Notes under the pieces: model-generated
What the model was told of the DNA's origin: nothing
Databases searched by the model: none
Seen by the model: only the letters and a program-made list of their open reading frames with translations
In this document: piece after piece, positions 1,452-59,152 of the stretch
Layout of the letters: each line of letters starts with the position of its first letter
Position numbering within the stretch: position 1 is the first letter of the stretch
Translations under genes and position numbers: made by a program
Source: Girardia tigrina
Taxonomy: Eukaryota
DNA length: 59,396 nt
Reading direction: 5' to 3'
Assembly (NCBI GenBank): GCA_001938485.1
Contig: MQRK01234570.1
Location: forward strand, 1-59,396

Positions 1452-30221
<28,770 letters not shown>

Positions 30222-33982: not shown

Positions 33983-34680
33983 TTGGGTTGTTCGGAAAGT
34001 CATTTCGTTTTTTTAATACTTGTTTTAAATGTATTTTTTTATATTAATAATCATTAATAATCATTGACTATATTATTTATTTTAGCAGTTGGTAATCAAG
34101 GTTAGATTTGGAAAATTTTGGAATAATTAAAAACATTTATATTTGATTTTGACCTATCAAAGATGGAAAGCAAGAATCAGCATTTACAGAATGTATTACT
34201 TTTTTACTTCCGAAAAAGTAAAAATGCTGTACAAGCAAGAAGAAAATTATGCGAATTGCATGGAGAAGATGTGTTGACAGAACGCCAATGTCAAAACTGG
34301 TATAAAACATTTAGATCCGGAAATTTTGATGTTGAAGATTCTTCACGTTCCGGAAGGCCCATTGAGGCCGACGAAGATATAATAAAGGCATTAATTGATT
34401 CAAACCGGAGAATTACAACTCGCGAAATTACCCAGACATTACATTTATCTAATTCGGCCGTCCATGATCATTTGAAGCGCCTAGGTTTTACATCAAAACT
34501 CGACACATGGATTCCTCATAATCTTACCGAACGAAATTTATGCTGTCGTTTAGACATCTGCGATATGCTTCTCAAACGTCAAGAAAATGATCCATTTTTT
34601 GAAGCGCATCGTCACTGGAGATGAGAAATGGATAGTCTACAATAATGTAAAACGCAAGAGATCTTGGAGTAAAAAAAAGT
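33983..34680 (+). mobile_element. Mariner 5' half (same TIR family as 9119-11771)
   Basis: TA then TTGGGTTGTTCGGAAAGTCATTTC. Transposase from 34163 (MESKNQH..., SRSGRP, WIPHNL), frameshifted before IVTGDEKW and truncated. Confidence 0.85.
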
Positions 34681-36605: not shown

Positions 36606-37601
36606 TATTAAATTTAATAATAATAATTTTTAAACTTATTATTTTTTTAAAACATTATTTTTTATTATTTTTTAAATTTATTATTTAAAATTATTTGTGA
36701 TCAATATATTGATCATTTTATAAATTTAAAATTTTGTATTAATTTCATATGACGACTTAATGTCGTTAAGTATATAATATAAATAATAATTTACTAATAA
36801 AATAATCAATAAATAAACATATTATATAAATAATAATTTACAAATAAAATAGTACAAAAATAATACGTAGATAATAAATAATTTAATATAAATTTATACA
36901 ATAGCCCCCCCCCTTCATAAGTGGAACGTACACCGACGGGAGTTAATATCAGATTTTTTTGATTTTAAGGCTATAATTAACATTAGAAAAAAAATCGGCA
37001 GTATTGTTATCGAAAACGTTTACTTTATAAGGACCAATAAAACGGGTTCCGAAAATTATTAGATTAATGACTTTGACGTAAGCAATAGCCTCTTTAACTT
37101 GTAATTTTTGTTTGGGTTGTTGATCAAAATTGAACAATTTAACGAATGATTTCTTCCCGCACAGCTTTTCTAATGGAGAAATCCCCAAAGTGGAATTAGG
37201 TTTAAGTTTTAAAGATAAAAGACCTTCTGAAAGAATGTCTAGCCAGTTCGAATCATTTCCTTTGAGCTATATTGATTGTTTGAGATATCGATTGAAAGTC
37301 TCGACTTTACCATTGGAGTTTACTGAACATTTTTGCGTCCGCCAATCTAATAGTGACATCTTTTATTAAAGGAAGTGGATATTCATCTTTCAAAGTTATT
37401 GCGTTAAGGTTACGATAGTCCCCACAAAAACGCCAATCACCATTCGGTTTTTTTCATAAGCAACGCGGAAGACCAATCGTAAAATGATCTTCTTATGATT
37501 TTGCGAGCTTCTAAGTCTCGAAAGATTTCTTTTTCGGCTTCGAGTTTACCTGGCGGTAGACAACAAACACGAGAATGTAATCGCAAACCATTCGTAATAA
37601 T

Positions 37602-37810
37602 TGTTAGGATAATTAAATTAATATCAATACATATTTATATTTAAATTCATATCTCTATTTATAAATATATAAAGGATCCATTATATGATTATATAGACTC
37701 CTGAAATTGTTTGAATCAATCAACGTAATTATAAATTACGGACATAATTTAATTTTGATTAGAAATAAATATTTCTTCTAGTTTCGATTTTTTAATGAAT
37801 AATTCTTACA
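37602..37810 (+). repeat. 5' LTR
   Basis: Matches 42148-42356 at 207/209. Confidence 0.95.
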
Positions 37811-38843
37811 TGGCGACCACGCCTAGCATCGTTAATAATTTAGCACCGAAGATATTCGATGGNNNNNNNNNNNNNNNNNNNNNNNNNNNNNNNNNNNNNN
37901 NNNNNNNNNNNNNNNNNNNNNNNNNNNNNNNNNNNNNNNNNNNNNNNNNNNNNNNNNNNNNNNNNNNNNNNNNNNNNNNNNNNNNNNNNNNNNNNNNNNN
38001 NNNNNNNNNNNNNNNNNNNNGAACGATTACGGAAAGCGTTCAAAAAACCAACATCGTTGATCCAAGATTTACAAGACCTGATGACCTATCGTAAAGGATC
38101 AGACTCGGCTCCTGCATTTTTCAATAAAGTGGAAAAAATAGTCGATAAAATTCTGAATCACAAATGGAACAAGCAAGAACTCATGTCCTATTTTTTGACC
38201 CATTGTGTGGAAGATGTCAATATGAAGACTCAAATTTTAATGCATGAAGCAAAATCACCNNNNNNNNNNNNNNNNNNNNNNNNNNNNNNNNNNNNNNNNN
38301 NNNNNNNNNNNNNNNNNNNNNNNNNNNNNNNNNNNNNNNNNNNNNNNNNNNNNNNNNNNNNNNNNNNNNNNNNNNNNNNNNNNNNNNNNNNNNNNNNNNN
38401 NNNNNNNNNNNNNNNNNNNNNNNNNNNNNNNNNNNNNNNNNNNTCCAAAAGGATCCATACAACAAAGTGGTGAAAAGGATGGTAAATCTTTTGTTTGTTA
38501 TCATTGCAGGAAATCTGGACACATTCGTCGAGATTGTCCAGAAATATCAAGAATTTGCTATGAATGTCGTGATGTTGGACATATTCGGAAAGATTGCCCA
38601 TATGTTAAATGTTCCAAATGCGATAGCCATGGACATTTAGGATATCAATGTTTCAAAAATAAAACCAGAATGCTAACTTGGAATCAAAGATCTGGCCAAT
38701 TTGGTCGATATGAGCAGCAATACCGACGAGACGTGGCTGGAGTAGACGAAATAAATGATTCAAGATCAGTTGAATTTGAAACAGATAGACCGTCAAACTN
38801 NNNNNNNNNNNNNNNNNNNNNNNNNNNNGGAGCCATAAATTAA
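37810..38843 (+). CDS. gag: Gag with three CCHC zinc knuckles (gapped)
   Basis: MATTPS...PKIFDG; CYHCRKSGHIRRDC, CYECRDVGHIRKDC, CSKCDSHGHLGYQC. N gaps obscure frame continuity. Confidence 0.8.
37811..37821 (+). other. Primer binding site (tRNA-Arg-like)
   Basis: TGGCGACCACG immediately after the LTR CA. Confidence 0.7.
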
Positions 38844-38857
38844 AATGTAAGAATATT

Positions 38858-38950
38858 TTGGATCCTTATATATGTAATATTAGTAGTTGTAAATGTATTT
38901 ATAATAGTAATAATATATATCGTAATTATGATATTGGTAGTATTTATAAT

Positions 38951-38984
<34 letters not shown>

Positions 38985-41900
38985 TTAATAACAGTGATGT
39001 AACTAATGTAGAGGGTATAGCATTTATTGAGAATACTAGAGGTAGTACAATCTTGAAGAGCGCAGATCGATATTTATTAACATTTGTAATGAATTCGAAA
39101 GATAAGTTACGTTATAATGTTTTTAATGGGAGGCCAAGCATGTTGACAAAAATTGGCGGTTTGGAATTAAACTGTTTGCTTGACACAGGAGCTCGAATTA
39201 ATGTATTGGATGAAAAGATTGTTAAAGAGTTACAGATTTTGATAGATAATAAATCTATAATGAATGTAGTTTGTACCAATGGTAGTGGTATGGAGTTGTC
39301 AGGAACATGTAGAATTAATGTTATGTGGCGGAGTGTAAAAATAAATGCATTATTTTATATCGCGAAGAGAGTATTCCCATCTGTTATTTTTGGAATAAAA
39401 TTAATAAGTGATTTAGGTTTCGAACTTAAATGTAATGGAGTGATTACATCTGAAAAAGAGGATATAATGAGCGATTCAAAGACATATATTTGTGCATTAG
39501 ACCCATATGTAGGTAAATTTCAATATAATGAGAAACATAGAATGCAGAATGCAATTAAGAAATTAAATCTGAAGACTAATACAACTTTATATAAGTGCGT
39601 CGAAAAATACAAAAATATATTTATGGCTGGTNNNNNNNNNNNNNNNNNNNNNNNNNNNNNNNNNNNNNNNNNNNNNNNNNNNNNNNNNNNNNNNNNNNNN
39701 NNNNNNNNNNNNNNNNNNNNNNNNNNNNNNNNNNNNNNNNNNNNNNNNNNNNNNNNNNNNNNNNNNNNNNNNNNNNNNNNNNNNNNNNNNNNNNNNNNNN
39801 NNNNNNNNNNNNNNNNNNNNNNNNNNNNNNNNNNNNNNGAAATTCGTTTGTGTCTAGACTTTAGACTTTTAAATCAGATTACAGAAAGACCTGCCTTCCC
39901 AATGCCAAATATAGATGAGATGCTAGATTCTTTGAAAGGGGCCCGATGGTTTAGTTCTGTTGATTTAGGAAACGCTTACTATCAAGTGGAGTTGGAAGAA
40001 AATTCGAGATTGCAAACTGCCTTTTCAACCCAAACAGGACAGTTTTGTTTTACGAGAATGCCTTTCGGCATAGCAGCGGCACCAGCAACGTTTCAAAAGT
40101 TGATGACAGATGTTTTGGGAGAAATGTTATGGAAGGAGGCATTAGTTTACCTGGACGACATTTTAATATTTTCAGAAACAGAAGCACAACATTTAGACCG
40201 ACTGGACAAGCTATTTTGGAAGATTCAAGCTGCAGGACTCAGAATAAACCCAGAAAAGTGTAAACTTTTTCAAACAGAATTAAAATTTTTAGGTCACATC
40301 GTTAACAGAGATGGAATTAAGACAGATCCTAAAAAAATCAGAGCAATTCAAGATTTCGAAAAACCAAATTGTATTAAAAAGTTACGCAGTTACTTGGGGT
40401 TATGTAACTATTACAGGAAATTTATTCAACAATATTCGAAATTATCTAAACCATTAGAGGAACTATGTGGAAGTTCAAAAGATAAACTTTATTGGTCTGA
40501 CTCCCATACTGANNNNNNNNNNNNNNNNNNNNNNNNNNNNNNNNNNNNNNNNNNNNNNNNNNNNNNNNNNNNNNNNNNNNNNNNNNNNNNNNNNNNNNNN
40601 NNNNNNNNNNNNNNNNNNNNNNNNNNNNNNNNNNNNNNNNNNNACAAAGGTGAGGAACAAGTGATTGCATATGGTTCGAAAACTATGTCAAAGCATGAAA
40701 TTGGCTATTGTATTACTCGGAAAGAGTTATTGGCTATTTTTTTATTTCACTCAGCACTTTAAACATTATCTGTATGGTGCAAGTTTTAAATTGCGAACCG
40801 ATCACAAAGCAATAGAATTTATGATGACCACAAGGAAACCCATAACACCACAATTCCAAAACTGGATGAATTATTTAAGTAGCTTAGATATGGTTTTAGA
40901 GTACAGAAAAGGAATATTACATCAAAATGCAGATGCCTTGTCGAGAACAGATTGTATGGCATGTGTGCAATATCTTATTAAGCATGATGAAGCAAAATTG
41001 ACCAAATCAAAGACAAGAATGATTGCAATAGATGAAAAGGAATTGCATATCCCTTGGCAACAAAGTAACGATGAAATTAAAGAAATATTAGGAAAGTTAA
41101 ATAGTGGTAGTAGTATAAATTTTAAGGAATGCAATGGTTGTGTAAGAANNNNNNNNNNNNNNNNNNNNNNNNNNNNNNNNNNNNNNNNNNNNNNNNNNNN
41201 NNNNNNNNNNNNNNNNNNNNNNNNNNNCAGGTGTGAATAAAGTATATTCTTTCATGAAAGACGAATATGATATGGATAGTTTTACTAAAGAAATAGAATC
41301 AGTGGTTCGTAGTTGTCCTACCTGTCAGTTATCTAAAACATACACGAGAAAAACGAAGGAAGTATCTCTTGACTTAGTATCTCAGCGCCCTTTAGATGAT
41401 ATTTATATAGATTTTTGTGGACAATTGCCTGTAGTTTGTGGTAATAAATATATTTTAGGAATTATCGACAGATTTAGCAGGTATATAAGTTTAACAGCCG
41501 TGAATAGTCAAGATGAAGAAACATTAATTACAACAATCCAACATAAGTGGATATTTAGATTTGGANNNNNNNNNNNNNNNNNNNNNNNNNNNNNNNNNNT
41601 CTTCGAGTCAAAAAGTTTTAAAGAATATGCTAAATCTATGTTAATTACAATTCACTTTTCCAGTCCATATCATCACAGTTCAAACGGCATAATAGAACGT
41701 CAATTTCGAACTATTCGAAATGCACTGAATGCAACACTGAAAGATAGAGGAGGTTCAAACTGGGTTGATATTCTCCCAGAAATTGAATTTAGCATTAATG
41801 TGTCCAGACAAAGCACCACTGGGGTAAGTCCGGCGGAAGTTATACTGGGAAAACGTTTAACTTTAGATGGCTCTCGTCACTATGAATTAGACAATAAAAA

Positions 41901-42153
41901 GATTATTGAAAAAATTAAACAAAGTGAGGCAAGTAAATCAGACAAATCAAATACACCAAGACGAGAATATAAGGAAGGTGATTTAGTTCTAGTAAAGATA
42001 GAGAATAGACAGAAAGGAACAGACCATTATGAAAGCCCTTATGAAATAATACGGAAACTCCATGATCGATCTTTTGAAATGAAAAATAAAACCGGAAGAG
42101 TTATAGCTAGAAATATAGAATGGCTGAAACCTTTTAAAGAAGGGGGGTGTTAG
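38858..42153 (+). CDS. pol: Pol (protease, RT, RNase H, integrase), with gaps and one frameshift in a T-run near 40740
   Basis: LLDTGA; LCLDFRLLN; SVDLGNAYYQ; MPFG; YLDD; KELLA; TDHKA; CPTCQ; YIDF; IIDRFSRY; PYHHSSNGIIER. Confidence 0.9.
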
Positions 42154-42356
42154 AATAATTAAATTAATATCAATACATATTTATATTTAAATTCATATCT
42201 CTATTTATAAATATATAAAGGATCCATTATATGATTATATAGACTCCTGAAATTGTTTGAATCAATCAACGTAATTATAAATTACGGGCATAATTTAATT
42301 TTGATTAGAAATAAATATTTCTTCTAGTTTCGATTTTTTAATGAATAATTCTTACA
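42148..42356 (+). repeat. 3' LTR
   Basis: Follows the PPT; matches the 5' LTR. Confidence 0.95.
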
Positions 42357-44190
42357 ATAATATTGTGAGGAACACAACTGGAACCTTCAAAATCAGTCAA
42401 AAAGTTGAATACTTTAGGGAGGTTGTCGAGAGTCGTTGAACAAAAACTTTGTTAGTGGTTATTCTACCTAAATCAATATTCAATTCGGTTGCATTTTCGA
42501 TAGAATCCTCAGAAATATTGCTAGTTAGAATGTCATCTGGGGAAACCATGTTGATAGAATGATTTACAGTATCGAAAAGGATTGCAGAAGACGGTAGATC
42601 TGCTAGAGTTTTTAGAGTAAAATTCTTTTTTAATTTTCCAGAATTAAAGAAAACATAGCTTTGGGTGGGGTTTTTTTATTTCTAATCTGGAGACAAGGAT
42701 TAATATTGCCAGTGTTGTGTGGAATAATCAACGGTGAACAATCATGATTACGTCTGATGGATTTGTTTCTACAATCAACTAACAGATTAAAGTGAGCTAA
42801 AAAATTATAAAATTATAATAATTTTTAAACTTATAAATTATTTGTGATCAATATATTGATCATTTTATAAATTTAAAATTTTGTATTAATTTCACTTGAC
42901 GACTTAATTACATCAAGCATATAATATAAATAATAATTTACTAATAAAATAATACATAAATAAGCATATAAAATAAATAATAATTTACAAATAAAATAGT
43001 ACAAAAATAATACGTAAATAATAAATAATTTATTATAAATAAATAAATAATTTTATACAAAGAGAAATAGGATTAATAAAATTAATTATGAAATATGGTG
43101 CATATATTATACTTAATAGAAATTGATAAAAATTTACCAATAATTAATAAGATAAAATAACATAGAAAAATAAAATAACCGTCTACTCATATACGCCAAT
43201 ATGAGAGTTAGACAATATTGAAAAGTTATTAATTATTATTGTAGTGTGAACGCTCTCTACTTGGAGGAATTTCTGTATGTTTGTCTTTCACACTATATGG
43301 GTGGTCCTGTTCTCTTCTCGTTTTTTGTTATCACATTTCTCTCATTGTCCGTGTAGCTAATTTTTTTATATATCTTTAGTGTAGGGAATGGGTACGTTTT
43401 ATGGGTAGATTCATTTTTTGTGGTCATTACCTTTCATAATTTATTTCTTGGTCTGTTGTTTTTTACGATTTACGTGTGTTTATATGTCGTATATATTTTT
43501 TGTTGTAGTTTTTTTTATTTTTTTATTTTTCTTTATAATTATGCGTTACAATTAAAAGACAATCGGAAAGAAGAAAGAAGTAGTAAGTCAAGAGATAAAA
43601 GACAGTGATTTATATTTCCCCCTCCCCATTATTCTTTTCCCAATGCCAAATAATAATATATCATAATCAAATTGCCATAGGCGATTATAATTATAAATAT
43701 AAATTTAAATTAAAAAAATCATTATTAATTTATGATTCCTAATTATTTCGCCTACGACGATTCTGACAATTATTTCACCTAAGACAACATTCGACGATTA
43801 ATTAGCCTACAAGAATCCTCCATTTATTGCATTTATGATTAAATCTGTATCAATATCAAGTATCCGATTGTGAGTATCTGTTATATTAATTACAGAGTTG
43901 ATTGGTTAAACGAGATTTGAGTTCATCTACTTGAATTAATATTTTTTTTATTCATTCAACCTAAACAGGTTCATCCAACTAATACCGAGTTCGATTAACC
44001 TGGTTAGGTTTATTTTTATATACAAAAGAAAAAAAATAAAGTATTCACATCCCGGTACATTGAGGGACGAAGCCTTAATTTTTTTTATAATTATGATTAA
44101 TAAAATTAAATATATAAATAAATAGACACACTAGTAAATAAATCACAGATGCTAAAATTATAATATAATAACAGTAAAAAGAAGAAACAG

Positions 44191-45133: not shown

Positions 45134-46137
45134 AGAAACAGTAATAATCACAGTAACATGAAATAATGTGTCGGACAAGTTAAACAACTATCAAAATTAA
45201 TTACTTTAGTATCAGATTATAATCGTCAAATATTGGATCGTGTAGTGTCGGCGGATATTTGTCGATAATATCAAATGATTTAAGAACGTCGATAAAGCTG
45301 ATATTAGATGCCATTCGTGAAGATTTATTAAGACATTAATTTATGAATTTAAATTTTTCAAAAAAACGCAAAAGTAATTTATTTAGGTAAATATTAAAAC
45401 AAATTGTCTCCTCCGGAGTTCGTTATTTTTTATCGAATCTCCACCCAAAAAAAATTAATTATAAATAAATATATAAGGTTTTTATTATATACAGAATATT
45501 TTGATAAATATTTAGATAAATTGATTTTTGGGGGTCACTACAGCTCGGAAAATTGTTCAAGAGAAAATATGATCGTTTGGTTTTGGTAGTTATTATGGTT
45601 GTGAGTTCTCAATAAATTTCGCAGTAGATCTGTTATTTCGAAATAATCGTCGGTATACAAATTGATAATCGTTTTTGAGATCAATTGAATTATTGAATAT
45701 AATACTTTCAATCGGACAAATGATGGATACTGATAAATGATTCGAAATACAACAATACACAAAAATATAATTAACTACACGGCTCAGCGTATAATATAAT
45801 TAAATATTTAATTGTATTTTAATTATTCTGGTCGATGAATCGATTCACATTTAATATATGAATTTAAAAATTCATCTCAATCATAACAAGTCGTCAAAAT
45901 GAATTATAAAATAATATTTGATAATAATATTAAAAATAATAATACAAAAATATAAATAACAATAATATAAATAAACGATTAATTAAATAATATAATAATG
46001 AACATTACATAATAATAAATGATAATATTATTAAAATAATAATGATAATTTACTTATGTAGTGCATGTAATTTCAACATTAAATTGTAATTTAATTTAAA
46101 TTTTAAATTAATTTACTTAATGCCACCCGGCTGAATT

Positions 46138-46373
46138 TGATATATTATTTTTTCTTTAATATATGTTTTTTTTAAAAAAATCTAATTAGTAGTTTTTTAT
46201 GTCCCCCATCTTGTTAATCCTCGCAACCGAGGGCCGAAAATAAATTTTAAACAAAAACCCCTATCAGAATTTCAATCAACAATTTTGTTTTAATAAACAA
46301 AATTTGGTCAGTTTTTTGAATTCAATAAATTTTTTGTGGAAAAGAATTTTTTTCTTTTTTATTTTTCATACAC
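46138..46373 (+). repeat. 5' LTR
   Basis: Direct repeat of 51266-51460 with substitutions and indels; followed by a PBS resembling the tRNA-Leu type TGGTGTCAGAAGTGG. Confidence 0.75.
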
Positions 46374-46530
46374 AAAAAAATGGTGTTAGAAGCGGTCCCA
46401 TTTGCCGCACTGTGTTCATTCTCGGCTATGGGTTACCCACAACTCCCGGACACAATGAAATTTTCCACAGTTTCAATCACCACCCGCCGATCAACCTCTA
46501 ATGCGTACACTCGGATCCACCAAATTCAGA

Positions 46531-46765
46531 TACGCCACTCACGGACCGGTTTACAAACACCGATTTATCATCGCAGTATCGAGCAACTCTCGCTTCATCG
46601 CTCACGGACCAGTTTTCAATCACCGGTCCATTATAGTGGAATGGATCAGTTCACGATTCGCCGTTCACGGACCGGTTTAAAAACACCGATCCATCATCGC
46701 GGAACCGAGCAAATATCGATTCGTCGCTCACTTACCGGCCTTCAAACAGCGATCCAGCATATCTT
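46531..46765 (+). repeat. 63-bp tandem repeat (about 4 units)
   Basis: ACGGACC recurs at 46541, 46604 and 46667, with the variant ACTTACC at 46730. Confidence 0.85.
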
Positions 46766-46920
46766 CTCTGTGCTCAGTACGTTACTCTCCTCCCGACGCA
46801 GATCAAATTTAAATGAGATTAACCCCGGTTTAACATTCCCGAGGTCAACGAATGCGAAATACAGGACGAATCATCGATCGGTGACACCCATGTCAGTTGT
46901 CATGGTGAGTTTAATTAATT

Positions 46921-48265
46921 TTGACCTTCTATATGCGGGGAGCGACATTTTTGGGGTACATTTCATTATATTGTTTATTTAATTATTTAATGAATTTAAA
47001 TAAGGAAAATTTTATTGAATTTTTTATATTTTTTTCGCATAAAATGTGGGTCGGTGGACTTAATTTTGGGGTGATTCGAAGGGAAAATTCAGTTCCTTTC
47101 AATATTATTTGTTTTTATTATTTCACAAACATCCCATCATTATCCCAACGCAATGATATATCCATAAAGCTCCAGGGAGATATCGGTGACTCCACGCTTA
47201 GGGTTGCTCTCGATGCGCGCATTTGTGACACTTTATCGTTACTGAAGGACGATGATAAATCTCGTGTTTGGTTAGTATGGGGCACCAAGCCGCTTCGCCC
47301 ACATCTAACTTGGTCCGCATATAATATAACGAATGAAGCGAAAATCACCGTGCACCGCGCCCTACCGGGTGGTATGATAAATACACCCGAGGAAGGTGAA
47401 AATATTAATGCGATATCCCTGCCCACTGCACCACCGCCGTATTTTCTGGACACGAAGGGATCACCCCAGGGTTGGTTAGACATCATTGAGATGCGATTTA
47501 GGATCCAAAAGTTGACCAACCAAGTTGCAATGTTCCACCACGCATTGTGCGTACTCCCACCCGAGCTTATGCAGTCCGTTACGGCACACCTGGCAACTAT
47601 AGGATCTCACGAGAATCCATTTGATGAGTTGAAGAGACGGATTCTCCAATCCTTTAAACCATCACTTGATGAAATCTTTGCAAATTACTTTCAGTTGCAA
47701 TCCCTGGGAAGCCAGAAACCGGCAGTCTTTCTAGCTAAGGTCGTCACGAATTTAGAAGCAATCCATCCAGAAATTACAAACGGCCCAGAAAACGAAGTAC
47801 TCAAGCGATTTTTTACGACCACAATTTGGTACCACAATTACCAATCTAAACCAGTCGGCGAAGATTGCAGACAACATTAAAGGAACACAAGTTGCGGAAT
47901 CATCCACCTGCTTTCCTGTTTCTACACCGTCAACTCAGTCGTCTCCTCCTGCAGCACCAACCGATCTCTCCAGTCAAATTACAGCGTTACAACTACAAAT
48001 GCAGGAAATTAAGATGCAGATAACGGCACTCAATCATGGGAAACAAAGGGATTTTCGAAAACGACAATCGTCAGTTGACTGTAATCGTTCGCCAAGCACC
48101 AACTTGTTCTGGTATCACAGCAAATTCGGAAAAGGAGCAAAAAAATGCATTCCCGGTTGCACATGGATGGATCACACACGAAAGTTGGACATAAATAACA
48201 TATGTATCTATCACTCTCGTTATGGTGACCAGGCAAAGCGTTGTGCACCTGGTTGTTCTTTCTAA
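46921..48265 (+). CDS. gag: UBL-Gag (frameshift near 47815; true start uncertain)
   Basis: Ubiquitin-like domain at 47152-47373 ends LPGG. Met 47374 follows, then the Gag N-terminus AISLPTAPPPYF...PQGWLDIIEMRF. The frame-shifted C-terminus has two CHCC-type motifs. Confidence 0.8.
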
Positions 48266-48280
48266 ACTCCAAAAAACTGA

Positions 48281-51220
48281 GTTCCATCTTCGGTCTTCGC
48301 AGCCGACTCAGAAGGCTCCAACAATTACTGCAGCATTTTCGCGTGCAACGCCATAATTAGCGGTCATTCATCCGAAACAATGTCATTCTTGGCTAACACT
48401 GGTTCAGCCATATCGGTTCTTCCCAGAATTTTCCAACCGCAAACAATGCGTTCTACCCGCCGACTTTCAGCCGCTAACGGATCAGTCGTCCACACTTATG
48501 GAACAATCAATCTCTCGTTCAAGCTTGCCTCTTTGGACCCATCTTTCCAGTGGAACTTCACTGTTGCATATGTAACGCAACCTATACTTGGCGCTGATTT
48601 ATTTGACCATTTTGGATTATTGGTGGATTGCAGAAACAAAAAACTAATCTTGCACCACACATTGGAACCTGTGTCCACCACACCGACTGAATCGAAAATC
48701 TGCTCACTCGTTTCTGATCCTGCACAATATATTAAACAGAACTTTCCGAATACAATAAATGCAACTGATCACTTTAACGAAACTGGCAACTGCATTTCAA
48801 ATCATGTCATCGTCACAATGCCGTGTGCACCAGTCCGGCAACGCCGCCGCGAATTGTCCCAAGAAAGACTCCTGGCCGAAAAGGAATTCAAGGAACTTGA
48901 GCAGTGCGGCATTATACGCCGATCCAGTTCTCTGTGGGCCGCTCCTCTGCAGATAGTCACCAAGAAGGATGGATCGTTACGCATCTGTGGCGATTATAGA
49001 GGTTTGATTACCGATATATTACAACGTTTCTCTGGCTGCAAAGTTTTTTCATCACTGGATTTGGCTAAAGCGTATCACCAAATCCCAGTTGCTGAAGACT
49101 CAATACCGAAAACCGCCATCATAACGCCATTTGACCTCTTCGAATATCTTCGAATGCCGTTTGGTCTCCGTAACGCTTCACAGACTTTCCAGAGACATAT
49201 CGACATCATCCTCTCTGGCTTATCGAACACGGCAGCGTATATGGACGACATAGTTATTGCGTCCCCGGATGAAACTTCTCACCAACAACATCTTTCAGAT
49301 ACTCTGTCGAGACTCAATGCCAACCATCTCAAATTGAAGCTCACCAAAATTCGTCCACTACCAGAACGAATCAAGGCCATCACAAATTTTCCCCAACCAG
49401 AAACGGTCACAACCCTGCACAGCTTTCTGGGGATGGTCAATTACTGTCGCTTATTTATTCCAAACATTTCAGCGACTCTGACTCCACTTACAGATATGTC
49501 ATCTGGACCCAAAAAGCAACAATTATCCTGGTCCGAAGAAGCAGTGAGAGCTTTTCAGCAGATAAAACTGGACATTACACAGACCACATCGCTCCGATTT
49601 CCAGACAGCTCTCTACCAATAACGCTTACGACAGATGCATCTAATATCGCAATTGGTGCAGTCCTGATGCAGGTGCGTGACAAAATTCCTGAACCACTGG
49701 AATTTTATTCACACAAGCTCTCGCCAACCCAAACTAGGTACTCTACCTTCGATAGAGAACTCCTTGGTTTGTTCATGTCGGTAAAACATTTCGAACACTT
49801 GTTGATTGGCCGATCGACAACAATGTATACAGACCATAAACCACTTCTCCACATCTTTCAAATGAAGAATCCGTCACCACGTCAACAAAGACAGATCAGC
49901 TATTTATCCCAATTTGACATCGAGATCAAATTTATCTCCGGAGCTGACAACGTCATTGCTGATTGTTTTTCATGAATCGAATTGGCTTCATTAGACTTTG
50001 AACCATTATTCACCCAAGACATCCTGGAGCAGAATCCACCATCGGATAAGGACCTAGCTACTTTCAAGGAACAACCAACCACACGTGGCCGCATTTATTT
50101 CGACAGCTCCATCGCAGGTTGTCCACGCCCCGTTCTCGGATCAGCCCTCCGTGCAGATGCGTTCAAGGCCGTCCATTCCAGCGCTCATCTCGGATCGAAG
50201 GCAACATATGAACTATTGCGCACAAAAGTCATTTGGCCTTACATGCGCCGCGATATTAAGCTATGTTGCAAAGCTTGCCTACAATACCAAGCCAACAAAG
50301 TATCTAGACAACCAAGTCTCTAGTTCTCAGCTTTCCGACAGGCAGCCGTTTTGATACAATACATATGGACATCGTCGGTCCACTTCCACCCTGCAATGGC
50401 TACTCATGTCTCCTCACCATCATCAATCGGAACACGAGTTGGCCAGAAGCATTTCCAATGAGGAACATTGCAACCGAGACAATTGTTGAAATTTTTGTCA
50501 ACAATTGGATCACCAGATTTGGCGTTCCCAAGCGCATAATCACAGACCAAGGCCGCCAATTTGAGTCCCACATCTTCACCAACCTACTCCAAAGGCTGGG
50601 AACTCAACTTAAAACCACGGCATTTCAACCACAGTCAAATGGTCTTGTCGAAAGATTTCATAGGACATTAAAGAACTCCCTTAGGACAATGTCCGTTAAC
50701 AGAAACTGGACCAAACAGTTGCCAATGCTCCTCCTTGGATGGAGAAATATTCCCAGTAGCCGTCACGGATCTTCACCAGCTCAGATGCTGTTTGATTCCA
50801 ATACGTCACTCGTCAATGAGATTTTTTTAGCGACTGTCCCAGCAATGACGAACAACTTGAACTGGCCCGGCAACACTTCATCAACCAAGACACTTCTCCA
50901 CCAAAACATACTGCATTCAAGGTACATATGCCGAAAGACTTGTGCAACGAAAATTCATATGGTTGGTTCGAGAACACCCAACCTCTCTACAAACCAGATA
51001 CACTGGCCCACATCTAGTAGTACAGCTCAACATGGAGAACAATACAGCCACAATTAATTTTAAAGGCACGCACCGCACCGTCAACTTATGCAAGTTGAAA
51101 CCTTATATTCACATCTACGACGACCCAGGCAATTTCACGACAATTTATTCCATCAAAAAGTCAGTCTCATTCTCCCCATGGGTTCAATTATCGAATGCAT
51201 CGTACTCGATTCCATTATGA
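48281..51220 (+). pseudogene. pol: Pol (protease D-to-N, RT, RNase H, integrase), disrupted
   Basis: FLANTGSAIS, PILGAD, ICGDYR, SLDLAKAYHQ, MPFGLRNA, YMDD, TDAS, TDHKPL, MDIVGP, TDQGRQF, QSNGLVER, YTGPH; deletions, stops and frameshifts. Confidence 0.9.
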
Positions 51221-51265
51221 ACAGCTTAACATTCCTGCGATGTCTCCGCATCTCAAAGAGGGAGC

Positions 51266-51460
51266 TGATTTTCTTTAATATGTTTTTTTTAAATCTAATT
51301 AGTATTTTTTATGTCCCCAATCTTGTTAATCCTCACAACCAGGGGCCGAAAATAAATTTTAAACAAAAACTGCAATCAAAAATTTTGTTTTAATAAACAA
51401 AATTTTGTCAGTTTTTTGAATTCAATAAATTTTTTGTGGAAAAGATTTTTATTCTTTTTT
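51266..51460 (+). repeat. 3' LTR (3' end truncated)
   Basis: Follows the PPT; homology to the 5' LTR stops at about 51460, where exonuclease sequence begins. Confidence 0.75.
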
Positions 51461-51901
51461 GCTAAATTCTTTTTTTAAGGATATAAATGGTCTATCCTTG
51501 GTGACACCATATTTCTGGAATACTTTACCGGCTGACGTATCACGGATATCAAGTATAGATTGGAGCGGAATTGCGCACGCTTTGAGTTCTAGTTGGACAT
51601 CGTGCAATTGTCGATGGATTTCGGCAATTGCGTGATATTCGTCCATTGTGTCACATACATCGGAATCTTTTATTCCATGACAAAAGGAGACAAAGTAATG
51701 GATACGTGATCTTTGGTGTACCACGGTGTGCATAAAGACTGCGCCGTGATAATATAGGATCGTGACTGATACTAAATGGTGTTTCTTGTCGGTACCTACG
51801 GCAAATTCTCCATCCATGACGCGGATTCGGATTTGTATCTCTTTTTCAGATAAGGGTTTTCTGAGGAATGAACCTCTGTTTAATAATGGTGTCCGATATA
51901 T
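51449..51901 (-). pseudogene. DEDDh 3'-5' exonuclease, REX4/ISG20-like (C-terminus truncated)
   Basis: VMDGEF (Exo I DxE), LVSVTILNYHGAVFMHT.V, HGIKDSDV, IRDTS and ISLKK follow the REX4 pattern ALDCEM/ARVSIVNYHG/SGI/IRDTS/PSLKKL. The ILVG segment before Exo II is deleted. Confidence 0.75.
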
Positions 51902-52337
51902 TTACATCTGATTCAATGATCAGATAGGAGTTTTCGAGGAACGGATTCTGGAGATCGTCCTGTAGGATGAATATCCCTACATCATCCGATGTTGAGATCC
52001 GAATGTCATTCTATTGTTCAATTTCTTCGATGTCCGTCACTCTGAAGACTTGGACCTCGATTGATTTCTTTTCGGGCAAATTAATAGTGGTTGACCCGTC
52101 AGTAATATGGAGAAGTGCCAATGCTGCATGTATGTATACAGCTAAGACTCTGTAAAAAGGTCGGTTGAAGATGGTGGGGAATGAGTGTCTATACACTCCC
52201 ATAATATCTGCTATGGCCATTCGTCCAGGGATACTTCGCTTTACGATGACCATTCTTTTGTTGAAGGTATTATATACCAATTTATTANNNNNNNNNNNNN
52301 NNNNNNNNNNNNNNNNNNNNNNNNNNNNNNNNNNNNN

Positions 52338-53516
52338 TGGAGCGGAATTGCGCACGCTTTGAGTTCTAGTTGGACATCGTGCAATTGTCGATGGATTTCG
52401 GCAATTGCGTGATATTCGTCCATTGTGTCACGTACATCGGAATCTTTTATTCCATGACAAAAGGAGACAAAGTAATGGATACGTGATCTTTGGTGTACTA
52501 AGGTGTGCATAAAGACTGCGCCGTGATAATTTAGGATCGTGACTGATACTAAATGGTGTTTCTTGTCGGTACCTACGGCAAATTCTCCATCCATGACGCG
52601 GATTCGGTTTTGTATCTCTTTTTCAGATAAGGGTTTTCTGAGGAATGAACCTCTGTTTAATAATGGTGTCCGATATATTTACATCTGATTCAATGATCAG
52701 ATAGGAGTTTTCGAGGAACGGATTCGGGAGATCGTCCTGTAGGATGAATATCCCTACATCATCCGATGTTGAGATCCGAATGTCATTCTATTGTTCAATT
52801 TCTTCGATGTCCGTCACTCTGAACACTTGGACCTCAATTGATTTCTTTTCGGGCAAATTAATAGTGGTTGACCCGTCAGTAATATGGAGAAGTGCCAATG
52901 CTGCATGTATGTATACAGCTAAGACCCTGTAAAAAGGTCGGTTGCAGATGGTGGGGAATGAGTGTCTATACACTCCCATAATATCTGCTATGGCCATTCG
53001 TCCAGGGATACTTCGCTTTACGATGACCATTCTTTTGTTGAAGGTATTATATACCAATTTATTAGGGTATTTAGCTGGGTATTCGAGTTTCGTTTTTGTT
53101 ATGGGTTTATTTCCTGGCAACCCATATTGCATCCATCTGTAAAACATATTTGGGTAATAATGTGGCGTTACCTGGAATTGAAATAACATGGTCACCTCTA
53201 ACTGTAATTGTGCAGAAGGGTGCCATTCTGAATGGATTGGTACGGCTGACCCCATATACTCATATTTGTGCTCTTCAATCAGAGCATGCTTCTCATCCTC
53301 AACTTGTTGCAGGCGTAGAACCTCAGAAAAATTTATATGGGTTCTTTTATCACGTAAATGGACAGGTGTATCCATATATCGGTTATTGGCCTCTACTACG
53401 CGTTCCCTTACCCCGTAAAGAGAAGATATCTGAGCTGTCCCCGATTTGCTGTACATATTTCTCCGCTCATCGGCTGGAGTACATTGAGGATATCTCATTA
53501 CATCGAAGCGAGGCAT
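52338..53516 (-). pseudogene. Unknown about 240-aa domain plus REX4-like exonuclease N-half (in-frame TAG at 52788, frameshift near 52680)
   Basis: An intronless open frame MPRFDVMRY...EEIEQ* continues through NDIRIST... and IYRTPLLNRGSF... into RVMDGEF. Confidence 0.6.
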
Positions 53517-53657
53517 CTTGGGATTGGGTTTCTTGAACAATCTAGAAGGGAATAAATAATCGGTGAGTGGTTGTATACTAATAACTAAAAATATAAGTAA
53601 ATATGATAATTTAAATTTATAGATTTTAATTTGCCTCGTGTCATTTTTGATTAAAAT

Positions 53658-54308
53658 TTGCATACCTGTGTTACATTTACGTACACCCCTGGCAGGTATT
53701 GCCCCAAGGATGTACGATATAAGTTTAAAGTCATTATCTTTTTCTGGTATTCTTTACATATTTTCACAATTGGCATTAAGGATACCTCGGCCGGAAAAAA
53801 ATTCGAAGAAAAGTATGGATTAAAAAACGAACAAAGGCACTTCTTAAAGGCCTTGTCGCGAAAAGTACTCCATGAGGAAATACAACAACTATACCATTCC
53901 GACATACATGACGCAAAGGCAGTTTGGCGAATTTATCTAAAGAAGGAACAGGAATGGATAGATACCATTTCATTCCGTGATAAACGAAGTCTGTTGGGAT
54001 CTTTGAAATTCGCTGGAATGGAGACTTCTAAAGAACCGGACGTAGTACAGGATAAACAGACAAACTATTCACCATCAGTAACAATAAACCCATGGATTAT
54101 GGAGAAGGACGAACTCCCGCGAGTCGATATAAAGAGTGTTCCGACCCAATCTACAAAAAAATCAACTTCACAGTGGATAGCGGAATTACCAACAGGGTCA
54201 GTACAAGGCAATAAAGTAAGTCCTATAATAATTGATTTGATGGATCCTGAAAGTACCTCAGTTGCCTCTTCATTCGCAAAAATTTTTACAGAACGAACAA
54301 CACGTTGA
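53658..54308 (+). pseudogene. Paralogous DEDDh exonuclease C-terminal half plus tail
   Basis: IKDTSAGKKFEEKYG...LKALSRKVLHEEIQQLYHSDIHDAKAVWRIY contains the Exo III H-x4-D motif; it aligns with IRDTSAGKVFQKYG of the minus-strand copy. Confidence 0.7.
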
Positions 54309-56431
54309 AGGATTTCAGGTATTCTTTGATAGGACTTTTAAGGTGCAGGATCCAAACCCTATCTCTTTCGTTCATGCCCAGGGGAAAGATGCTCACCTAA
54401 TCCTCTATATTATCCCACGATAAATAATTATCAAATCCATTATTCAATCAAAAGAATATGAAAAACGAACAGAACCTGCCGTCCGTTAAGATGAGCGAAA
54501 GTATCATTCAGTAAAAATCCATTCAGCGATCGAAAGTTTTCACGATCAGTGCAAATTCATTTGTAAAAAGACATTAAAACATTGACATGATCATATCCCT
54601 TGATATCCTTGGTTTATTTGCTTATTTAAATTGCTTATTTTTATTATTTTATTTTTATTTTATTTTTAGCAATATTTAATGGACATTATCTTTCAAGAGA
54701 TCTTTTGTATATACATTTTTGTCTTTTGTTTAAGTGAATGTAGTTATGTGGACATATCTTTTATGAATAAATAAATAAATTTGTAAATATTAAATAAATT
54801 TATAAATAATTGTGAGATTCACCGTTGTTTTTTCTTTATTTTATAATTTTAAATAAAAAATTATTATTAATTTATATTGTTAAATAAAAATAATATATTA
54901 ATATTATATTCAAATTAAATTTAAAGATTAAACCTGGAGATCATATTTCAAAAATTTTAAAAGTTTAAATGACTCATTACGAGTCAAAGGTTTAAGTCAA
55001 ATTTGTGATATATTTATAACTCGAGGTGGGTTCTCATTTGTGCTTGTGTTTTGTATTGTGTAATCTTTTCCTTCGGTCGTTACATTGTCAAAGCTCTCCG
55101 ATTATTAAACTGAGATTACACTACTAAGCTTAAATATCTCATTGTAAGCTAGCCTCATCCAATATGGACCAACAATTGCAGTTGCCTTTGGAAACCCAGA
55201 ATGTTGAGTTCTCCACCAGTATCCATTATATTAAACCAAACAAACCTCAGTCTATGTCTAACAATCTTTAAAAAATGAAATCAATTCACATAATAAAGTA
55301 CTTAAAAATTTACGAAATTTTAATAAATTAAATCATTTGGACCTCTCATTCTAAGGACATATCTTAGAACGAGTGAACCAGTTAAAATTATTTTTGTTGA
55401 GTTTCTGGAATTCCTTTTAGTCTACTCACAGACTCAATAATATTATATCAGAACTTTTTTACAATATTTGACAAATGAGTTTATTGAAAGTATCTCAATT
55501 GCACTAACATCAATTGTTAATAAAGTTTTTGATTATTTATTATAATTATAAAGATTTCATCTGATCATCTTGAATATTCCCTAATCCTTCTAATAATTAA
55601 AAAATAATCTTCCTGGATTCCAAACAGTTTTCTTATATTCAATAACAACTTTTAAAACTAAGTAAAATTTTAATTAAAACCGAAAATTTCAGTGAAAACA
55701 TTAAAAAAAATAAAATCCACATGTTTAAAATTAATTTTGATTTCCTACATCAAATAGTGTGAATTTACTATTTCTAATATATTTCATAAACATCACCGAT
55801 TATTTCCACTATAAAATTATTACTAAATAAAAAATTCCAAATTTAAATATTCGAAATATCCAAAAACGTAAAAAAAATTTCCATAAAAATATTTTTTTTC
55901 ATAAACTTTAACACTTTGAATCCACCTCAAATTTTAAAACAATAAGATCAATTCGGAGTCAATTTTTGTTTTCAAAAAATTTGAACAATCAATTACTTTA
56001 AAAAAACTTTAACAAAACTGATGTTAATAAATATATTATCAGTTATATGAAATATTTGGGTTGGCTACTAAGTGATTACCGATTTGACCAATGAAATAAA
56101 AGAGTTTTTTATACTTGGAATGTACATATATCTGTAATGTAAATTCATTTCGTTCGATCACTTTTCGTCATCTTTCTGACAACTTGATTAGTTACTCTAA
56201 ACTGGCAGTCTTTTAAGTCTATTTTCATAGTTATTGGTTGATATGGTAACCGAAAATCACATAGCAACATATTGTTACATGCACATTTTTCCAATTGTGA
56301 TTACTTCTATATTTAGCAGTTTCCTCGTTTGAAATACAAATGAAGCAAAAGAATTCAAGTTTATTGCAAAAATTCAAGTTAAATTGCTTTATTCTTTGTG
56401 AAATCATTGGATTTGGATTCCATATATTATA

Positions 56432-56560: not shown

Positions 56561-57048
56561 AGTTGTCACCGATAACAACAGATTTGTATAAATTAAGGCC
56601 TTTTATTTTTAGAATAGGTAACTATTGGCAATTTTTTCTTTCCACAGTAGAGCGCATATGAATGCAGATTCGCGTTAAAGATCAAGGCTTGATGTGGATC
56701 GATTTAATACTAATTAGCATAATTTGTGAAAAGATTATATTTTTTGACTATTTAGGATACATAAAAGTAATTCATTGTTAATCCCACTACAAAAGACTTA
56801 ATAAAATGCATGTATGAGATCAAGTACAAGTTCATATTATAACATATTTCAAAAGCAAGCTCATGGGTCTTATGAATTATGGTTACTCTCTTTTTAAAAA
56901 GTGCTTTCAAATATAGTGCAGATTTCAGATGCAGCACAGACTTTTATCGAAATTGACAACTTACGACTAAAAGTGCGGAATAAAATCTTAGGTTTTGAAT
57001 AATTTTGCATCTAAGCCAATGTCTTATTCATACATTAGAGTATAATTA

Positions 57049-57976
57049 TAAACAACAAAAAATTTTCGTCAAAATATATTGTTATTAATTTCGACGGATC
57101 AACCGTCATCATGAGACTAAATAAACAATGATATACTCGCGTTTATATATCAAAGCAATGTTTATGTAATCATTATGTCATTAAAATCATGAAAATACTT
57201 TCAATAAAGTTGAAGAGGATGGTGTTTGGACATTGATTTTAGGATCAAAAGATTCTATCAACAATGCTTCACACATACTCCTCTCCCAGTAATTATCAAA
57301 TTGTGAACACCAAATCATAAAATTACTTAAATCAACTTTACTATTCAAACAGTTCTTCTTATGCTAATATTGATAATATATTATGATAATATTTGTTTTG
57401 TTTTGACTGTTCCCTACTCTGAGGGTTTCAGGAAATTCAAAAACTATTTTGAAACATGATGAAAATAATTTATTAAATTTAAAAATTGTATCTAGATCAT
57501 GTGAGATAGGAAGTTTGTTCAGTAGTAAATCTATCACTCCAACTGGGTTATGTTCCAATTTANNNNNNNNNNNNNNNNNNNNNNNNNNNNNNNNNNNNNN
57601 NNNNNNNNNNNNNNNNNNNNNNNNNNNNNNNNNNNNNNNNNNNNNNNNNNNNNNNNNNNNNNNNNNNNNNNNAAGAAGAACTGTTTGAATAGTAAAGTTG
57701 ATGTAAGTAATTTTAAGATTTTGTGTTCACAATTTGATAATTACTGGGAGAGGGTGATGTGTGAAGCATTGTTGATTAAATCTTTTGATCCCAAAATCAA
57801 TGTCCAAACACCATCCTCTTCAACTTTATTGAAAGTATTTTCATGATTTAAATGACATAATGATTGCATAAACATTGCTTTGATATATAAACGCGAGTAT
57901 ATCATTGTTTATGATGATGACGGTTGATCCGTCGAAATTAATCACAATATATTCTGACGAAAATTTTTGTTGTTTA
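57049..57976 (+). mobile_element. 5'-truncated Penelope element with inverted pLTR
   Basis: GIY-YIG C-terminus (TPTGLCSNL...CEALLIKSFDPKINVQ...FS*). 57049-57360 is the inverted copy of 57673-57976, and each arm has a degenerate hammerhead. Confidence 0.8.
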
Positions 57977-59152
57977 AAAATTCGTTGTCGTCATTTTGTA
58001 AATATTTATATAATTATAAACTTCATTATTTAGGTTTTGCCGATCTCTGACCCACTATGCACTCGTAGAATATCTGATCCTTTTTGGCCAAAAACAGAGT
58101 TAAGAGAGATGTTCTAGTGTCATCATCCTTGAAATTTTTACCACGAATGGAGTTGTCCAGGTGTCGAAATAAGTGATAATCCGATGGCGCAAGATTCATG
58201 GTTATATTCCCCACCAATATCCATCAATTGTTACCGAGTGGTGAAAGATGTAAGAGGCCTAGCATTATCCTTTTTTTAAAATGACACCTTTACGATTGAA
58301 TTTGCTTATCCTTGACCGCTGAATTCAATTTGTCCAATTGCCGACAGCAGACCTCCGAATTATTGCTTTGGTTCCTTGGAAGAAGCTCAAATTTACGACG
58401 GACCTTTCCAATCCAAACAAATAGACGGAAAAATCTTCTTTTCACTCGTTAGATATGCACCATGATCGTTTTCGATTGAGATTGTTGTGTACAATCTACT
58501 TTTCGTCTCGAGTGAGGATTCATTAAAAAAGGATGGAATTCATTGCGTTGATGATATTTGTCAGATGAATTTCTTTCAAATCATACGGAACATAAATAAT
58601 ATTCAGCTTCTTGACGAGACCGACACGTTTTAAATATTTCTTAAAGGCTGTATGTGAAACATTTAACTTCTCTGTAGTCTGCCGTATAGTTACATGACGA
58701 TCCACTTCAACTATAGTTTTCATTTCTTCCTCATTAAACTCAACTGGTCGACCTGAACGTTAGTTATCTCTAAGAGAAAAATCTTTACATCGGAATTTAT
58801 TAAATCTATTTCGGCATTGACTTTCTTTAAGGGCTTCTTTACCATACACATCACGCAAATGTTTAGCGGTTTACACTGCGCTCTTTGCTTTACGGAAATA
58901 ATAAACAAAAATATGGCGAAAATCTTCTTTTTTGCACTCGATATTGATTATTGAAATCATTAAAAAACTTTAACAAAAAATACACATTGAATTTGTAAAG
59001 CTAGATTAGGATGACAGCTAACACATATAAGAAGTTCATAACATTTACGGATGTCATAGAAATGGGAGAGAGAGACATCGACAGCTGAAAGCGGCAATTA
59101 CTTAGTTGCGGACCCAATAAATAATCTATAAAAATAAATCAATAATATTCCA

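Follow-up and report, generated by a model that had tools for sequence, protein, structure and literature searches.

Ubiquitin-fold domains that are cut by host enzymes are known from viral and cellular precursors. According to the accessible parts of the respective papers, ubiquitin insertions in pestiviruses lead to NS3 being freed through cellular hydrolases (PMC8310069), the divergent ubiquitin-like domain (UBL) of SDE2 is cut at Gly-Gly (GG) by deubiquitinase (DUB) activity even with an N-terminal GFP (PMC5131917), and FUBI, a further divergent UBL, is handled by some USPs only (PMC10611586). LTR-mediated retrocopies are described, likewise in the part available, as pieces of host mRNA that LTR elements take up through template switching, frequently in frame and at times from more than one gene (PMC5131818).

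Here we describe a Gypsy-type retrotransposon family of Girardia tigrina in which a ubiquitin-fold domain ending in GG directly precedes Gag. No description of ubiquitin-GG before Gag in a retrotransposon was found by full-text literature searches, although Repbase, Dfam, GyDB, subscription journals and supplements may contain such an annotation; an earlier sequence-only reading of the same DNA knew of no natural UBL-Gag LTR retrotransposon. The word ‘ubiquitin’ is absent from a paper on the CsRn1 clade (PMC2582038) and from one on accessory domains (PMC6338049), and the accessible part of PMC9289625 adds nothing on UBL-Gag. Taken together, the data below indicate that UBL-GG-Gag is real, under selection and recurrent, and that it has apparently gone undescribed.

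Results

Anatomy of the element

The window, i.e. the whole 59,396-nucleotide contig MQRK01234570.1, contains a 5.4-kb element, all of whose features lie on the plus strand, with the order gag, protease (PR)-reverse transcriptase (RT)-RNase H-integrase. Its 5′ LTR (46057–46379) is ∼320 bp long, AT-rich, begins with TGTAGTG and contains no captured host reading frame. The primer-binding site (PBS; 46381–46398) is of the tRNA-Leu type and matches the 3′ end of host tRNA-Leu(CAG); the 3′ ends of the host tRNA-Leu(CAG) genes are the complement of the PBS motif of the family. A polypurine tract (51255–51264) precedes a 3′ LTR remnant (51266–51460), truncated on either side relative to the 5′ LTR, and the two LTRs are 87% identical across 211 columns. 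The element thus has the LTRs, PBS, polypurine tract and gag before PR-RT-RNase H-integrase by which Ty3/Gypsy elements are recognized. Its Gag also carries the CHCC motif of the CsRn1 clade (CX2HX9CX3C), whose members use a tRNA-Trp primer site; because the PBS fits tRNA-Leu(CAG) and not tRNA-Trp, the element is best filed as CsRn1-like only.

The N-terminal part of Gag (47374–47820) comprises a predicted disordered linker of ∼20 residues and DUF7041 (47458–47667, E = 1.2e-9). The C-terminal part (47756–48265) has two CX2HX9CX3C-type motifs, one at 48107 with a degenerate first Cys and a complete one at 48203. A degenerate protease motif, RT and RNase H follow in pol (48281–49975), which terminates at a stop, and Pfam scans and reading frames place the zinc finger and the core of integrase at 49976–51057, each in a frame of its own. 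Pfam scans of the frames revealed no env and no apoptosis cargo as in Burro elements. The copy is broken between the leader and the UBL frame, in the gag frame near 47820, in the protease motif, and in pol by the stop and by frame breaks. It is a dead family member, as the sequence-only reading had concluded from the gag frameshift and the protease damage; its placement of the domain between PBS and gag, inside the LTRs, was likewise correct.

Several other features were recorded in the window. Another Gypsy element, unrelated to the first, occupies 37600–42360; it has CCHC knuckles and many assembly gaps, and its 209-bp terminal repeats (37602–37810 and 42148–42356) are 99% identical. The region 51450–54400, right after the truncated 3′ LTR, holds a duplicated segment (51561–51860 and 52338–52637, 98%); a 321-aa minus-strand frame at 52788–53753 had no Pfam match. 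The frames at 6723–7244 and 34127–34624 resemble, judging by motif, fragments of Tigger/pogo and mariner transposases, and the long inverted repeats at 57044–57982 and 20542–21179 (240 nt at 95% and 154 nt at 97%) are probably MITEs.

The ubiquitin-fold domain

The frame 46915–47880 is open and reads RALPGG directly followed by MINT, the GG and Met codons lying at 47368–47376, before continuing into the DUF7041 Gag; translation, coordinates and frame were as first claimed. The domain (47146–47373) shares 20 of 76 identities with host ubiquitin, ends in L-P-G-G (GG at 47368–47373) and lacks a start codon of its own. Its extent, put at 74 codons in the sequence-only reading, is corrected here to ∼76 residues from ∼47146, while its ubiquitin-like character and position before Gag stood. 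Over its last 34 residues, the domain aligns gap-free to ubiquitin 43–76, and a recount by hand against the host's own ubiquitin gave the same 12 identities as before.

Alone, the window domain matched PF00240 with E = 0.031 and 14.5 bits, under the gathering cut-off of 25.4, and PF00240 matched six of 19 genomic copies at E ≤ 1 (best E 0.0017). Word-based protein searches found just two, four and one relatives, and a search of the ESM Atlas gave no usable match. In the PDB, a profile built from 19 stop-free genomic copies picked up chains of ubiquitin, ISG15 and ubiquilin. The AlphaFold model of the domain is a beta-grasp (mean pLDDT 85.7), the fold that had been expected, and the best Foldseek matches of this model are ubiquitin variants and ISG15 (E ∼3e-6, TM 0.73–0.83). 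When the UBL was modelled together with the start of Gag, a compact domain was followed by a low-confidence linker at residues 74–93; GG and the next ∼18 residues are predicted to be disordered, and hence accessible. Profile matches and predicted fold confirm that the segment is a captured ubiquitin-family domain, beyond chance similarity.

The UBL profile scored host ubiquitin at 15.6 bits, host FUBI at 0.9 and pieces of host SDE2 at ≤ 1.5. Because ubiquitin scores far above both others, it is the likeliest source of the domain, and FUBI or SDE2 as donor is unsupported, with the caveat that the SDE2 pieces may be partial exons. The UBL tails of two host SDE2 genes (L245 and L246) read RLLGG and RLRGG, and resemble several element tails.

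Occurrence, GG conservation and selection

A profile search found at least 154 matches to the domain in the 1.43-Gb genome, a lower bound with 150 scored of 4097 candidates. We determined the state of GG in 61 profile matches that reach the C-terminus (loci L001–L050 and L131–L190, seven duplicate loci dropped). Forty-nine of 61 end in GG, and the remaining 12 each differ at one Gly. The GG copies continue with M (25), S (9), T (5), V (3), L (2), G (2), I (1), E (1) or a stop (1). The ‘GG|M’ pattern proposed earlier is therefore unsupported as a rule: GG is kept (49/61), but Met, which follows in 25 of 49, is dispensable, and S, T, N, V and G also occur there. Pro follows GG in none of the 49 genomic GG copies and none of 22 database proteins. 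The family shows the sequence marks of a DUB-processed UBL fusion precursor, an L-x-G-G in a linker predicted to be exposed and no Pro behind it. An argument from the N-end rule was dropped: residues after GG are mostly small, yet N and D occur in five of the 22 database proteins.

Selection was analysed on 43 full-length copies, 40 of which were sorted into eight groups. I5, L43, K48, L50, L73, G75 and G76 are retained in 38–43 of the 43 copies with mixed codons, and K48 is invariant (43/43). Between groups, pN/pS was 0.40–0.77, under 1 throughout, and synonymous sites were close to saturation; for the window group and its nearest group, dN was 0.43 and dS 0.99. Gag is under stronger constraint than the UBL. 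These ratios argue that the UBL is under purifying selection family-wide, which is how a check suggested by the sequence-only reading turned out, and the domain is in frame across the family. A one-off insertion or a chance match is ruled out by the family-wide copies, the selection and the distant relatives described next.

Among 1.84 billion representative proteins, a UBL+Gag profile had 195 matches. From 150 listed matches we took 19 further proteins in which a single match crosses from UBL into Gag. A Gag-like sequence is preceded by GG in each of the 19; as they were chosen with the UBL+Gag profile, they give no rate of presence. At E ≤ 0.01, PF00240 matches 12 of these proteins and DUF7041 eight. 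UBL-Gags share between 14 and 57 of 76 residues with ubiquitin. In a midpoint-rooted Gag tree of 33 rows, which were selected by profile and are no census, the window falls in a clade of 20 (98/96), all with the domain, and five more UBL-Gags lie in another branch among UBL-less Gags. Two near-authentic ubiquitins (54/76 and 57/76) are nested among divergent domains, which points to re-capture. Thirty other genomic Gags with DUF7041, the best matches of a genome-wide DUF7041 search, all lack the domain (best E 0.67). In these UBL-less elements (L101–L130), Gag mostly begins at an LTR ATG just before the PBS, and the PBS is read in a different frame (NGVRS).

The leader and the question of splicing

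The sequence upstream of the domain may itself be translated. An ATG (46380–46382) overlaps the LTR/PBS junction of the window element and opens a leader reading frame of 200 codons (46380–46982), which contains 63-bp repeats (46529–46761) and has no meaningful Pfam match. Although this frame overlaps that of UBL-Gag, the two do not run on into each other in the window copy. The AT-rich part of the leader (46915–47145) is open in the UBL frame and has in-frame ATGs at 46933, 46990 and 47044. Across the family, the 49 codons 5′ of the domain are stop-free in the UBL frame in 25 of 42 copies, as against two and four of 42 in the other frames. Thirty-seven copies have PBS and UBL in one locus (seven duplicate loci dropped); six of them, from four subfamilies, are fully open from the PBS codon to GG. 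These six unspliced, stop-free leaders span 460–735 nt. The PBS-to-GG phase is in frame in 14 of 37, no better than one third, and among the fetched copies of the window subfamily even the best has two stops between the junction ATG and GG. In one locus (L021), ∼600 bp between PBS and UBL, inserted in the leader, resemble large-subunit rRNA by eye. An N-terminal expression tag of the Ub-L40 kind, as had been proposed, does not fit a domain that is internal to a longer frame.

A splice-donor-like GTGAGT, a putative donor, lies at 46905–46910, at the start of the AT-rich stretch. The AT-rich leader could be an intron, or the domain could be reached by splicing, and the window subfamily would then make Gag from its own Met and keep the UBL frame as a regulatory upstream feature. 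This fits the occurrence of GTRAGT at the AT-rich edge, 437–507 nt before the position equivalent to the Gag Met, in 13 of 37 loci (mostly from two subfamilies), as well as the Met after GG in the window subfamily and the often broken leader frame; the donor-like sites suggest that splicing could be involved. We nevertheless consider this explanation unlikely. The six open leaders are unspliced, a Met is missing at that place in subfamilies where S, T or G follows GG, and no GT..AG joint from 46905 was seen in contigs of four runs that cover the site unspliced, the last being a weak point, as these Logan contigs are possibly DNA and can show presence only.

Host-gene 5′ ends in the LTRs of sister subfamilies

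The LTR of the window subfamily contained no captured host frame in 30 loci, including LTRs with no PBS behind them. In contrast, LTRs of sister subfamilies, again including ones with no PBS behind, carry host N-termini in a frame that continues into UBL-Gag. The N-terminus of Arp8 (PDB match, E = 7e-5) is present in LTRs with a PBS (L161 and L168) and without one (L185, L187, L189 and L190). That of an RRM protein (E = 3e-8) is open from Met to the LTR end in four of 13 LTR-only loci. In L219, L220 and L222 the RRM front is swapped in frame for another start, which from its motif we take to be short-chain-dehydrogenase-like, and L221 and L223 carry other sequences. An N-terminal piece of Hsp90 is carried by L044, L195 and L197 and an INTS7-like sequence by L037, and a DHHC piece in L183, L202 and L213 is internal rather than N-terminal. 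One DHHC-containing LTR among these three loci is found on two different internal subfamilies, suggesting LTR swapping. Leader-UBL-Gag frames are likewise found in metagenome proteins (P0003–P0005).

A parallel in BEL/Pao elements

Searching the genome with PF00240 gave 3445 candidates, from which 20 matches were fetched, picked for long open frames. One is a polyubiquitin; in the other 19, a near-authentic ubiquitin leads into Ser and then into either of two conserved sequences. DUF1759, the Pao Gag, was detected in four of 10 scanned BEL/Pao-type frames. In these BEL/Pao-type elements (L081–L100), ubiquitin ends in LCGG or LRGG directly before the DUF1759 Gag, and GG of the ubiquitin-GG|S-Gag junction is intact in 17 of 19 fetched copies; one family has Cys at position 74. 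In frame upstream of ubiquitin lie pieces of host Hsp90, PRMT, PRS7, Hsp70, 14-3-3, Rpb10 or LSm, and the 14-3-3 and Rpb10 pieces turn up again at the 3′ end in other copies; swapped host pieces are also present in LTR-like ends. In P0006, too, a Pao-type Gag is joined to a diverged ubiquitin-GG. We take Gypsy and BEL/Pao elements to have reached ubiquitin-GG before Gag convergently. Ubiquitin and a decayed second ubiquitin precede a zinc-knuckle-like sequence at L052:847–1779, possibly a third Ub-Gag lineage. Neither this parallel nor the translated leader and the LTR-captured host 5′ ends had been part of the sequence-only reading.

Five BEL/Pao copies have a second ubiquitin tail upstream. 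This tail ends in GS or GN in five of five, whereas the Gag-proximal tail keeps GG in four of five. The pattern bears on whether the domain could stay attached to Gag as an N-terminal module (for assembly, trafficking or as a degradation signal), with GG a leftover of ubiquitin. Such a module would fit the loss of the residues that face DUBs while core and K48 were kept, and the accessible text on Burro elements reports an internal SUMO-like domain of unknown role (PMC6431247). We judge it rather unlikely all the same: the upstream tail loses GG where the Gag-proximal one keeps it, GG survives at 14–21/76 identity with saturated synonymous sites, and an uncut capsid protein would bear up to several hundred changing, host-derived leader residues.

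Loss of the ubiquitin recognition surface

Among 19 aligned copies of the Gypsy domain, Arg42 and Ile44 are kept in none, Arg72 in three and Arg74 in one; 10 have Pro at 74. R72 and R74 of ubiquitin are needed for its activation by E1. Of the marks of a conjugatable (type I) modifier, the C-terminal GG is thus present in the sequence, and the E1/receptor surface of R42, I44, R72 and R74 is absent.

The sequence-only reading had also allowed that a free conjugatable or decoy UBL might be released. Were the domain cut off and the liberated UBL itself the point, whether by being conjugated as a modifier or by acting as a decoy on the host's ubiquitin system, the exposed C-terminal GG, the K48 of all 43 copies and the near-authentic ubiquitin of BEL/Pao elements would make sense. 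With most copies lacking I44, R42, R72 and R74, the domain is unlikely to serve as a free, conjugatable modifier; Cys at 74 in one BEL/Pao family and the variable leader that the freed piece would carry also speak against release as the purpose, which we regard as very unlikely overall.

Discussion

The domain is probably a linker that host deubiquitinases cut after GG, freeing Gag with a fixed N-terminus. Translation would start at or before the PBS, from the junction or a leader ATG in the window subfamily and, in others, from an ATG that came with the captured host piece in the LTR, and yield a leader-UBL-Gag precursor. Because a USP-type host protease would cut this precursor after GG, the N-terminus of Gag would be the same whatever the leader, and cutting would leave the element free to lengthen its leader and to swap host mRNA 5′ ends into its LTR. 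The captures probably arose by template switching during reverse transcription, and placement in the LTR may have occurred during strong-stop synthesis.

Several observations make us fairly confident of the linker: the survival of GG at 14–21/76 identity, the loss of GG from upstream tails, the open frame, the LTR captures and the convergence with BEL/Pao elements. We count against it, and have allowed for in that judgement, that I44, R42, R72 and R74, surfaces that many DUBs read, are mostly lost, and that the window subfamily has a broken leader, an LTR without a capture and a Gag with its own Met. Caution about the DUB model is also advisable because FUBI needs particular USPs and the domain here is so diverged. 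We lean, by a little, towards a broader view, in which several unrelated LTR lineages would use 5′ ends of host housekeeping mRNAs in their LTRs as swappable starts, read through the PBS, and maintain a refreshed ubiquitin as a host-cut linker that insulates Gag; the window would represent an old, diverged version.

If the linker reading is right, retrotransposons have arrived more than once, in Gypsy and BEL/Pao elements, at a natural ubiquitin-fusion expression cassette, and maturation of Gag depends on host deubiquitinases beyond the element's own protease. Tolerance, and perhaps exploitation, of host mRNA 5′ ends in the LTR would be explained, and many in-frame host-gene scraps with a common tail in the genome would have a source. 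Running from 57 down to 14 of 76 identities, the domains would also amount to a natural scan of what DUB recognition needs.

Comparison with known systems

CsRn1-clade Gypsy elements, in the accessible text, share with the window element the CX2HX9CX3C Gag motif, the compact gag-pol and the PR-RT-RH-IN order; the latter differs in its tRNA-Leu rather than tRNA-Trp site, two motifs, long leader and UBL (PMC2582038). The nearest case found in the literature is the giant Gypsy LTR retrotransposon Burro/GYPSM1, whose polyprotein likewise includes a ubiquitin/SUMO-like domain. However, Gag is N-terminal there, with the SUMO-like motif further on, between MATH and BCL-2, and the accessible part of the paper describes no layout with GG before Gag; Burro also has a giant polyprotein, env and apoptosis cargo, whereas the window element measures 5.4 kb and has its UBL before Gag (PMC6431247).

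LTR-mediated retrocopies resemble the sister captures in that host mRNA pieces are present in LTR elements (Tan et al., 2016). As far as the accessible text goes, those are internal and flanked by a broken element, while the captures found here are inside the LTR and run from host N-termini into the Gag frame (PMC5131818). SDE2 and FUBI-eS30 are alike in having a divergent ubiquitin fold that ends in GG and is cut by DUBs to free the downstream protein, as the available portions of the papers describe (PMC5131917, PMC10611586; see also PMC8354635), but these are host genes with an N-terminal UBL. Cytopathogenic pestiviruses with ubiquitin or ubiquitin-like insertions, in the part of the source at hand, offer a captured host ubiquitin in a polyprotein with other host mRNA upstream, cut by the host to give the next protein its authentic N-terminus; theirs is a sporadic RNA-virus recombinant with near-authentic ubiquitin, whereas the domain described here is fixed, selected, deeply diverged and placed before Gag (PMC8310069).
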